A DNA stretch of 64,000 bases from Minisyncoccota bacterium (GTDB taxonomy: Bacteria > Patescibacteriota > Minisyncoccia > Phycocordibacterales > Phycocordibacteraceae): assembly GCA_041666305.1 (NCBI GenBank), contig JBAYHD010000002.1:684-64683 (forward strand), written 5' to 3'. Shown in pieces: positions 555 to 3,401 of this stretch (position 1 is its first letter; every line of letters starts with the position of its first letter). The position numbers were made by a program, and so were the translations under genes. The notes below the pieces were generated by a model. The model was not told the origin of the DNA, did no database searches, and was given only the letters and a program-made list of their open reading frames with translations.

Positions 555-3401
555 TTGGGAAAGCATATGGCGTACGACCACAAACACATTGAGAAGAAAT
601 GGCAGGAGAAATGGAAAAAGGACGAACCATATCGCTCAACCGAAGATACCGATAAGAAAAAAGCGTATGTGCTTGATATGTTCCCATACCCGTCAGGGGA
701 GGGGCTTCATGTGGGCCATCCGCGCGGATACATCGCGACCGATATTTATTCTCGCATGAAGCGCATGCAGGGGTACTCGGTGCTCCACCCGATGGGATGG
801 GACGCATTCGGTTTGCCGGCGGAAAATTATGCGCTCAAAAATAAAGTGCATCCGCGCGTTGCCGTGGAGAAGAACATTTCGAATTTCAAACAACAGCTCG
901 CGCACATCGGATTTGATTATGACTGGTCGCGCGAGATAAACACGACCGATCCCGCGTACTACAAATGGACTCAGTGGATATTCCTCAAAATGCTCGAGCA
1001 TAAGCTCGCGTTCCAATCGAACGAGCCCATCAACTGGTGCCCCTCATGCAAGACCGGACTCGCGAATGAAGACCTCGACGGTCCTGTGTGCGAACGCTGC
1101 GGCACTACGGTTGAGAAGAAAAGCTTGCCGCAGTGGGTGCTCAAAATTACCGACTACGCCGATCGCATGCTCGCAGACCTTGATTCGCTCAACTGGCCGG
1201 AGCACATCAAAGAAGCCCAACGGAATTGGATAGGGCGTTCCGAAGGTGCGGAAATTAGCTTTCCGATAGTCGGGAGCGAGGAAACCGTAACCGTATTCAC
1301 GACGCGACCGGACACGCTCTATGGTGCGACGTATCTGGTGCTCGCGCCGGAGCATCGCTTTCTCACCGATAAAAATTATGGGTTTACGAAATCCTTAATT
1401 AATGCAGATGACGTGCGGGCGTACGTCGCGCAGGCGGCAACGAAGACAGAGATAGAACGCGGCGCAGAAGGAAAAGAGAAGACCGGCGTGAAGCTCGAGG
1501 GCGTCAGGGCGCTCAATCCCGCGACGAAAGAAGAAATTCCTATCTACGTTGCCGACTACGTACTCGGTGGGTACGGTACAGGCGCCATCATGGCAGTCCC
1601 CGCGCACGACGAACGCGACTACGAATTTGCAAAGAAATTTAATATTCCGGTCCGGAACGTTGTTGAGCCGGTGCTTGTACAAACGACTGGTTCCGCTGCA
1701 TTCCGGGAGAACGAGCCTGTCCAAGACAGCAACGGCATCATTGCCATCGTGAAGCACTGGGGCGACGAGAAGTATATGGGCTTATATTGGTCGAAGGCAG
1801 AATGGGGCACACTTCTTACCGGCGGCATTGATGAAGGCATGGCGCCTGAAGAAACCGCCTTGAAAGAGATCCGCGAAGAAACCGGCTATACCGACGCGCG
1901 CATCGTTGAATCGTTCGGCACTATTCATAGCAAGTATTACCACGCACCGAAAGAACTCAATCGGTTCGGGCATGCACCGACATTTTATATCGAGCTCAAA
2001 AGCGATGCTCGCGAGGAAGTTTCTCCGGAAGAACTCGCCAAACACGAACTCCATTGGCTCACGAAAGAAGAATTGAAGTCATTTTTGACGGCAACATCAC
2101 ATTTGCAGGCGCTCGCGTTTTTGGATTCGCATGTCTATACCGGCTCCGGATTGCTTGCGAATTCGGGAGATTTTTCAGGCAAGGATAGCGAGCAGGCAAA
2201 ATGGGATATTACGCAAGCCGTGGGAGGGAAGCGCGTGACGCGCTACAAACTCCGCGATTGGGTTTTCTCACGCCAGCGCTATTGGGGCGAGCCGATACCG
2301 GTCATTCATTGTCCGAAAGACGGCGTGGTGCCAGTTCCGTATGAAGATTTGCCGGTCGTATTGCCGGAGGTGGAGTCGTATGAGCCGACCGGCACCGGCG
2401 AATCGCCCCTGGCCACCATCGAATCGTGGGTCAACACGAAGTGTCCGAAATGCGGCGAGCCGGCGAAGCGCGAGACGAACACGATGCCGCAATGGGCGGG
2501 CTCGTCGTGGTATTACCTGCGCTTCATGGACCCGCATGACGCAACCCAGCTTGTGTCCACGAAAAATGAAAAGTATTGGGCGCCGGTCGACGTGTACGTG
2601 GGCGGCGATCACGCCGTGCGCCATCTCATCTATGCGCGCTTCTGGCACAAGTTCCTCTATGATATCGGCGTAGTGAGCACGCAAGAACCGTTCGCGCGGC
2701 TGGAGTTCCTCGGTTTCATCCTTGCAGAAGACGGTCGCAAAATGAGCAAGCGCTACGGCAATGTCATCAATCCGGACGACGTCATCGCGGAATACGGCGC
2801 TGATGCGTTCCGTATCTATGAAATGTTCATGGGGCCATTCGAGAACACAACGAACTGGAGCACTGCTTCCATTGCCGGTACATCGCGTTTCGTGGAGCGA
2901 TTGTGGAATCTGCATGAGACGGTCACGGATGCGCCGGTTCCGGAGCTCGAGCCGCTCCTGCATCGCACCATTCAGAAAATAGGCGCGGACATCGAGTCGT
3001 TCAAATTCAATACCGCCGTGAGCCAAGCGATGATATTCCTGAACAAGATCGAAGAAGTCGGGAACATAGGAAAAGAGCAGTGGCGTTCTTTCATTTGCAT
3101 CCTTGCGCCACTGGCACCCCACTCCACAGAGGAATTGTGGGAGCTCTCCGGAGAAACTTCCTCCATCCACCTCGCTCCGTGGCCTTCATTTGACGAAAAG
3201 ATTATTGCCGCGAGCCATAGCGAGATCGTCGTGCAGGTGAACGGCAAGCGCCGCGGCTCTATTACGCTCCCTGCGGATGCCGTCGAAGAAGCCGCACTGG
3301 CGGCTGCAAAGGCTCTGCCGACCATCATGGCTATGCTCGACGGGAACGAGCCGAAACGGGTGATTTACGTGCCAGGCAGGATCATAAATCTTGTGGTATA
3401 G
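555..3401 (+). CDS. leuS: leucyl-tRNA synthetase carrying an internal Nudix-hydrolase-like insertion
   Basis: HIGH motif (HVGH), KMSKR motif, CP1 editing signatures ([22 protein letters not shown]), [19 protein letters not shown]; about 130 extra residues (aa ~385-520) with Nudix fold and box [23 protein letters not shown]. Confidence 0.9.
   Translation: [948 protein letters not shown]

Follow-up and report, generated by a model that had tools for sequence, protein, structure and literature searches.

A Nudix hydrolase domain is inserted in the CP1 editing domain of a leucyl-tRNA synthetase from Patescibacteria

We analyzed a 64,000-nucleotide stretch of DNA from a Minisyncoccota bacterium (contig JBAYHD010000002.1, hereafter the window) and found that its leuS gene, which encodes a bacterial-type leucyl-tRNA synthetase (LeuRS), carries a Nudix domain of 155 residues within the CP1 editing domain. 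We read the protein as a functional-looking LeuRS with an autonomous Nudix module, predicted to be a pyrophosphohydrolase, that adds an accessory activity to a permissive scaffold, a reading that we hold with as much doubt as confidence. Both LeuRS and Nudix hydrolases are known; the variant that unites them here extends across the lineage and has apparently not been described in the literature. The feature had first been noticed from the DNA letters alone (the original prediction), with the remark that no LeuRS-Nudix architecture was known to have been described. Full-text literature searches found no paper describing one, and for the searchable literature the remark stands.

The window protein matched the Pfam NUDIX family (PF00293) over residues 415-511 at 40.9 bits (E 2.5e-10; gathering cut-off 21.1), and the insert alone scored 44.9 bits. 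An AlphaFold2 model of the insert built from a 44-sequence alignment had the alpha/beta/alpha Nudix fold (predicted local distance difference test, pLDDT, 95.7; predicted TM-score, pTM, 0.89), and Foldseek agreed. The original prediction had placed a Nudix domain inside LeuRS and had named this Pfam search as the way to check it; the domain is there, and the peptides quoted in its support are all present in the 948-aa open reading frame (ORF). The Nudix box has the spacing of the canonical GX5EX7REUXEEXGU and keeps the catalytic glutamates 438, 441 and 442. Two residues of the signature that had been read around KEIREETGY are non-canonical, Met429 replacing the Glu of Gx5E and Lys437 replacing the Arg.

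The borders of the insert were set by comparison with an insert-free relative of 791 aa (P0010), whose backbone is 88.9% identical to that of the window protein. Where P0010 reads ...REVVEK-GETLVP-YTGNG... the window protein reads ...RNVVEP-[155 aa]-YTGSG... In the alignment to Thermus thermophilus LeuRS (1H3N), window residues 7-371 corresponded to 4-363 and residues 527-725 to 376-580. Since the flanking alignment skips the T. thermophilus loop 364-375, the insert replaces that loop. We take the CP1 limits of the T. thermophilus enzyme to be 224-417, as reportedly given by Cusack et al. in 2000 in the original structure paper, and the module thus sits inside CP1 and not, as had been proposed, after its end. 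The span first assigned to it, 1700-2115, lies inside the insert but falls short of the full borders at 1671-2135. The earlier estimate of about 130 extra residues taking the place of about 25 has to be revised to 155 residues in place of 6-12.

The synthetic and editing motifs around the insert are intact, as the original prediction had stated. HVGH, KMSKR, TTRPDT and AHDERD are all present, and the protein scored 976.4 bits with the leuS_bact equivalog model (TIGR00396; cut-off 548.4), the match being interrupted by the insert and so falling into two stretches. Pfam detected the class I catalytic domain, the LeuRS editing domain and the anticodon-binding domain, the editing domain (PF13603) with 197.8 bits over residues 223-377 and profile positions 1-147 of 185. 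In a full-length model (pLDDT 83.4, pTM 0.72) the LeuRS body superposed on Escherichia coli LeuRS 4AQ7 with TMt 0.82. The window protein resembles the bacterial LeuRS of T. thermophilus (1H3N/2BYT) and E. coli (4AQ7) in its HIGH, KMSKS and ZN1 elements, its CP1 with Thr-rich and Asp motifs, and its anticodon-binding and C-terminal domains. It differs from them in the 155-aa Nudix domain in the CP1 loop and in the absence of the leucine-specific domain, since T. thermophilus 581-637 (~57 residues before KMSKS) has no counterpart and residues 725-730 bridge the gap.

The ORF runs uninterrupted from 555 to 3401 on the forward strand. From the TTG at 555, from which residues are numbered here, it encodes 948 aa, and from the annotated ATG at 567 it encodes 944 aa; the latter start (MAYDHKH...) agrees with the N-termini of homologs. 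The 944-aa version is identical to MFA6519392.1, a protein that comes from a Candidatus Paceibacterota metagenome-assembled genome (MAG) and is labelled 'MAG: class I tRNA ligase family protein' at NCBI and 'leucyl-tRNA synthetase' at JGI. A protein identical to the window LeuRS was found in NCBI, JGI and ENA, and the architecture recurs in ~100 or more independent MAG proteins. These observations, and the concurrence of the hidden Markov model, fold and selection evidence, refute the view that the feature is an artefact, whether of a motif arising by chance, of faulty assembly or of a fusion made in gene calling.

We then compared module copies across the clade, namely 189 at the CP1 site of the window (site A), 21 at a second site (site B), 4 at a third (site C) and 37 encoded as stand-alone proteins. 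The clade consensus Nudix box was fully canonical, with G423, E438, E441 and E442 ~100% conserved in every class. R392, W412, W417, K466, N469, R470, L481, E493, H497 and W501 were also near-invariant. Positions 429 and 437 covaried: 154 copies have E-R, 42 pair Q at 429 with a residue that is not basic, and 35 combine a hydrophobic residue at 429 with K at 437. This suggests a contacting pair in a maintained fold and not decay. Between the window protein and its closest insert-bearing relative (P0002) the ratio of nonsynonymous to synonymous substitution rates (dN/dS) was 0.053 in the insert and 0.061 in the backbone, at dS ~1. The Nudix module is as constrained as the synthetase backbone and is under purifying selection. 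The invariant glutamates and the dN/dS values are indirect signs that it may have metal-dependent pyrophosphohydrolase activity.

Non-enzymatic Nudix domains exist (PMC5389931), and the module might accordingly be a non-catalytic sensor, regulatory element or tRNA- or protein-binding surface that modulates LeuRS, comparable to NrtR or the NUDT9H domain of TRPM2. The window box, which lacks both the Gx5E Glu and the Arg, would fit such a role. However, the metal-binding glutamates and box glycines are conserved over ~250 copies, at all sites and in the stand-alone proteins, the changes at 429 and 437 are coordinated, and dN/dS is 0.05. Together with the existence of stand-alone members, this makes a non-catalytic module quite improbable.

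The same kind of module was present in 95 of the 120 best LeuRS homologs, all of them from Patescibacteria MAGs, and the architecture is therefore not unique. The named sources of these proteins were Patescibacteria, Paceibacterota, Minisyncoccia, Parcubacteria and Yonathbacteria MAGs. When the insert alone was used as the phmmer query against 1.84 billion representatives, only 350 proteins were found at E <=1e-3, which indicates a small, distinct Nudix clade. A word-indexed search with the insert alone gave one stand-alone protein; the remainder came from exhaustive phmmer and full-protein searches. Among the best 150 of the 350 matches, ~100 were LeuRS or LeuRS fragments and ~45 were short stand-alone proteins, and the few longer ones that did not look like LeuRS were LeuRS fragments or Nudix tandems. 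No host protein other than LeuRS was found for this Nudix clade among these best 150. Two proteins, P0128 (379 aa) and P0238 (467 aa), carry two tandem clade Nudix domains and no detectable LeuRS sequence, the two copies in P0128 being 74% identical to one another; each may be a fragment of a gene or a tandem that stands alone.

Among the matches in species-representative genomes, those embedded in LeuRS (L005-L026, L028, L037 and L040) carry Patescibacteria names, including Paceibacterota, Adler-, Sungii-, Nomura-, Kaiser- and Moranii-bacteria, Gracilibacteria and 'Saccharibacteria'. The sole exception is a 'Gammaproteobacteria' bin, whose LeuRS backbone resembles the Patescibacteria ones. 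At nine more loci, also in Patescibacteria MAGs, the module is encoded by a gene of its own. The Nudix clade is specific to Patescibacteria, where it occurs as a stand-alone gene or, far more often, as an in-frame cassette in LeuRS. Near the stand-alone members L001, L029 and L033 we found neither leuS nor a conserved gene context. In L033 (2484-4706) the stand-alone member lies next to another, dissimilar Nudix gene, one gene of the uracil-DNA glycosylase family and one that resembles O6-methylguanine methyltransferase genes, a DNA-repair or house-cleaning neighborhood.

These proteins are numerous in public databases, and the architecture is thus not peculiar to the window. The original prediction had allowed for a common lineage-specific trait of LeuRS already annotated as non-catalytic. 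The insertion is indeed common in Patescibacteria LeuRS, but its annotation in public databases is merely automatic. Many insert-bearing homologs have PF00293 precomputed on them and are labelled merely 'class I tRNA ligase family protein', the name that PGAP gives them because it has no curated model for this architecture. Although these proteins score above the leuS_bact equivalog cut-off, automatic naming seems to suffer from the internal insert; the annotation of these genes would be mended by a family model of their own.

We found that the module behaves as a cassette. Over 96 LeuRS, backbone and module identity were uncorrelated (r = -0.12). One relative (P0005) is 88% identical to the window protein in the backbone and ~37% in the module, with dN of 0.73 in the insert and 0.074 in the backbone, and identity drops only between residues ~361 and 556, with sharp borders. 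Within LeuRS clusters of >=80% backbone identity, four Nudix types and empty sites occur side by side, and the cluster of the window protein itself contains T4, T1 and 'none'. Site B lies after residue ~211, just before LNWPE, and often holds two tandem copies; site C lies in the ZN2 region at residues ~627-647. Two modules were present in 12 proteins and three in 5. Sites A and B and the stand-alone genes share the same module sequence types. A site-B copy may be as much as 67% identical to site-A copies in other proteins, whereas its identity to the further copies in its own protein is just 32-48%.

Other hydrolases also occupy LeuRS loops in relatives (P0008, P0130, P0097, P0221 and P0077). 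A Ser_hydrolase/alpha-beta-hydrolase or Ham1/ITPase domain follows the equivalent of window residue ~243, Ham1 precedes the anticodon-binding domain, and HAD is inserted as well. The largest of these proteins has 1518 aa, with three Nudix domains and a HAD domain. Since near-identical LeuRS do without the module, it is dispensable for LeuRS as such. Its presence and absence, swapping, multiple sites and copies, and the occurrence of unrelated inserted hydrolases in relatives together point to an accessory module and not to one integral to LeuRS chemistry.

In its population behavior the module is reminiscent of inteins, which likewise lie in frame in essential genes, are polymorphic, occupy several sites and have phylogenies decoupled from the host gene. 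An intein itself was rejected. The junctions VVEP|VLVQ and DSHV|YTGS, with V373 the first residue, have neither a Cys/Ser start nor a His-Asn end followed by Cys/Ser/Thr, and no homing endonuclease was found. Unlike an intein, the domain lies in variable loops instead of conserved motifs and stays in the mature protein.

The same presence/absence polymorphism, multiplicity of sites and copies, and decoupled phylogeny would be expected of a selfish or conflict-driven cassette, either spreading like an intein without splicing or engaged in an arms race in which it neutralizes nucleotide toxins or signals directed against LeuRS or translation. The G+C content at third codon positions (GC3) of the insert is 0.574, slightly under the minimum of 0.60 for other 155-codon stretches of leuS. 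However, it is within the range of the neighboring genes (0.51-0.69) and so is not evidence of foreign origin. Neither direct repeats nor target duplications were seen in the junction DNA. The PADLOC-DB defence models gave no match for the window module, two relatives reaching a non-significant E ~0.005 to PDC-S07, and PHROGs gave generic Nudix matches only. Intein residues and an endonuclease are lacking, the loops that hold the module are variable, and the module is under strong purifying selection, which argues for a benefit to the host. Together these points leave this explanation a slim chance.

For the nearest Nudix enzymes, we compared the family profile with PDB sequences and found the best match to be the lupin diadenosine tetraphosphate (Ap4A) hydrolase (1F3Y), the only one matched by a window-type profile. 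In Foldseek the first structure was 2AZW, followed by Rv2985, Ndx1, DDP1/DIPP, CT771, the Aquifex protein aq_158 and NUDT2, the last three being Ap4A hydrolases. The first, a MutT/nudix protein of Enterococcus faecalis (Firmicutes) from structural genomics, is a stand-alone protein 18-19% identical to the module; it has no known substrate and so is uninformative about function. Rv2985 of Mycobacterium tuberculosis (9CXX) is a diadenosine polyphosphatase and 8-oxo-GTP phosphatase, and Ndx1 of T. thermophilus (1VC8) is an Ap6A hydrolase. Diadenosine polyphosphate (ApnA) hydrolases and RppH are the best sequence and structure matches among characterized enzymes. The module shares with them (1F3Y, 1VC8, 9CXX, Chlamydia CT771 and E. 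coli RppH) a minimal fold of ~135 aa, the REUXEE glutamates and an aromatic residue in the X-loop. It differs from them in the signature of its own clade (R392, W412, W417, K466-x2-N469-R470, E493, H497 and W501) and in being embedded in another enzyme. RppH models were the most frequent NCBIfam match, in 34 of 44 modules, all of them weak and far below cut-off. We rejected an assignment as RppH, since the best score of the window module against the curated equivalog (PRK00714) was 21 bits, compared to a cut-off of 116.

ApnA hydrolases are marked by an X-loop Tyr that follows the Nudix box at a distance of 16-18 residues (Dunn et al. 1999, as summarised in PMC5389931). The window module has Y461 and Y462 at +16 and +17, and F or Y occupies these positions in >90% of modules; the marker correlates with ApnA activity and is insufficient alone. 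Sequence and structural models together make polyphosphate-bridged nucleotides the best-supported and a plausible substrate class, either ApnA (e.g. Ap4A) or RppH-type RNA 5' ends. Hydrolysis of Ap4A, one of two activities suggested in the original prediction, is plausible on the same grounds, being compatible with the nearest relatives and the aromatic residues at +16/+17. The other suggestion, hydrolysis of misactivated aminoacyl-adenylates, does not agree with established chemistry, as these compounds have no pyrophosphate bond and are not substrates of Nudix type. Their hydrolysis is the job of HIT/Hint enzymes.

Under the accessory-activity reading that we favor, the Nudix module would be a catalytically competent unit in a surface loop of CP1 and would work independently of aminoacylation and editing. 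LeuRS would provide a permissive, essential and constitutively expressed scaffold for accessory nucleotide hydrolases with a 'house-cleaning' or alarmone-clearing role. The most probable substrates would be ApnA such as Ap4A, or RppH-type 5'-polyphosphate and Np4-capped RNA ends. This reading fits the co-occurrence in relatives of 'house-cleaning' enzymes (ITPase, HAD and other Nudix types), the stand-alone members beside DNA-repair genes in one genome, and the small genomes of the lineage.

Several observations count against it. The two non-canonical residues in the window box do so, as does the likeness to ApnA hydrolases and RppH, which is only slightly above that to other small Nudix enzymes, with identity <=20% and NCBIfam scores below cut-off. 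In the full-length model the Nudix blocks are the best predicted (pLDDT 88-96) and confidence is likewise high for the blocks at the junctions (88-92 and 84), which gives no sign of a floppy linker. Short, confident junctions suggest, as far as the model goes, a fixed orientation on CP1 and not a loosely tethered passenger. Finally, a mere scaffold explains poorly why LeuRS is the only host seen, at three independent sites, which hints at a functional link specific to LeuRS.

A coupled mechanism, in line with the original prediction, would account for several of these points. A Nudix domain mounted on CP1 would destroy by-products of LeuRS at their source, either Ap4A/Ap3A formed by attack of ATP/ADP on Leu-AMP or misactivated adenylates, as an additional proofreading or alarmone control. 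The restriction of the clade to LeuRS, with insertion at three loops in or around the CP1 and ZN modules, is consistent with such coupling, as are the short junctions, the nearest characterized relatives and the Tyr/Phe marker. On the other hand, LeuRS that are 89% identical do without the module, modules that are only ~35% identical interchange on near-identical backbones, and a single LeuRS may hold up to three divergent Nudix copies together with HAD, ITPase or alpha/beta-hydrolase domains. The chemistry of aminoacyl-AMP discussed above also counts against it, and in classical surveys LeuRS is at best a moderate producer of Ap4A. We therefore regard coupling as doubtful, but the exclusivity of LeuRS at three sites and the rigid-looking junctions keep it alive.

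A broader form of coupling, which we consider unlikely, is that LeuRS is a dedicated docking platform for exchangeable hydrolases (Nudix types, ITPase, HAD and alpha/beta-hydrolase) that move in frame among 3-5 or more loops and from strain to strain, its exclusivity as host reflecting a real functional connection. One possibility is that the CP1-mounted Nudix clears Ap4A/Np4-type alarmones or RNA caps that the synthetase produces or senses. Should this hold, bacterial aminoacyl-tRNA synthetases (aaRS) would have a new way of expanding their functions, and domains a new kind of in-frame mobility, distinct from that of inteins and of transposons.

To our knowledge, bacterial aaRS are usually held to be architecturally conservative, and internal insertions of catalytic domains are rare. 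One known case of an extra enzyme domain, the isoleucine--tRNA ligase with an N-acetyltransferase domain (NCBIfam NF040702), likewise joins a class I synthetase to an unrelated small-molecule enzyme domain. That case is a curated exception model, whereas in LeuRS the extra domain is internal to CP1, is of Nudix type, and varies in type, site and copy number. It is this dynamic, multi-site and multi-copy behavior that is of real interest: one essential enzyme of a major uncultured radiation with small genomes hosts 1-3 Nudix domains and other hydrolases that are constrained yet turn over between strains. Coupling of the modules to LeuRS would connect translation with dinucleoside-polyphosphate or RNA-cap metabolism; without such coupling, the modules would be a clean natural case of domains 'hitch-hiking' on an essential gene and would show where LeuRS permits insertions.

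Table 1. Positions of leuS and its motifs and domains in the window (residues counted from TTG 555).
Feature	Residues	Position	Strand	Basis or location
leuS, bacterial-type leucyl-tRNA synthetase with inserted Nudix domain		567..3401	+	TIGR00396, exact protein match, full-length model
HIGH motif, HVGH	52-55	708..719	+	Invariant in LeuRS homolog alignment
CP1 editing domain, N-terminal part	~226-372	1230..1670	+	PF13603; alignment to T. thermophilus LeuRS 1H3N
Thr-rich motif, TTRPDT	249-254	1299..1316	+	In CP1 N-terminal part
GTGAIM	341-346			In CP1 editing domain
AHDERD with editing Asp	350-355	1602..1619	+	In CP1 N-terminal part
Inserted Nudix domain, 155 aa, in place of short CP1 loop	373-527	1671..2135	+	Empty-site relative P0010
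Nudix box, G423-x5-M429-x7-K437-E438-I-R-E441-E442-T-G444-Y445	423-445	1821..1889	+	
Y461-Y462, +16/+17 after Nudix box, X-loop position	461-462	1935..1940	+	ApnA-hydrolase Tyr marker position
CP1 editing domain, C-terminal part, to return to catalytic core		2136..2246	+	Residues 527-725 align to T. thermophilus 376-580
KMSKS motif, KMSKR	729-733	2739..2753	+	Invariant in LeuRS homolog alignment

The ZN2 zinc module, whose region is the third Nudix insertion site in some relatives, is altered in the window LeuRS. Its first knuckle, IHCPKDG (2304-2324), keeps one Cys, and its second, CPKCG (2442-2456), keeps CxxC. Judging from these residues, ZN2 may have lost the ability to bind zinc.

No second copy of the Nudix module was found in the 64-kb window, and the AlaRS, TyrRS, AspRS and GluRS encoded there had no extra hydrolase domain. 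The AspRS (50122-51552, +) has 476 aa and matches 590-position bacterial aspS models in two stretches; its GAD insertion domain appears to be missing. The AlaRS (17782-19677, +) is of the short type, ~595 aa. This suggests that the genome trims the accessory domains of its aaRS (the short AspRS and AlaRS, and a LeuRS without the leucine-specific domain), yet LeuRS has gained one.

Just downstream of leuS, the gene at 3460-4539 (+) encodes a protein with Sigma70 region 4 and a HARE-HTH domain, and the ORF at 10299-11168 (+) unites an ATP-cone and a restriction endonuclease domain of Mrr type in one protein. The gene for tRNA-Leu(TAG) lies at 26612-26698, ~23 kb from leuS, and that for tRNA-Tyr(GTA) at 40286-40372, ~0.7 kb downstream of the TyrRS gene (38348-39601).

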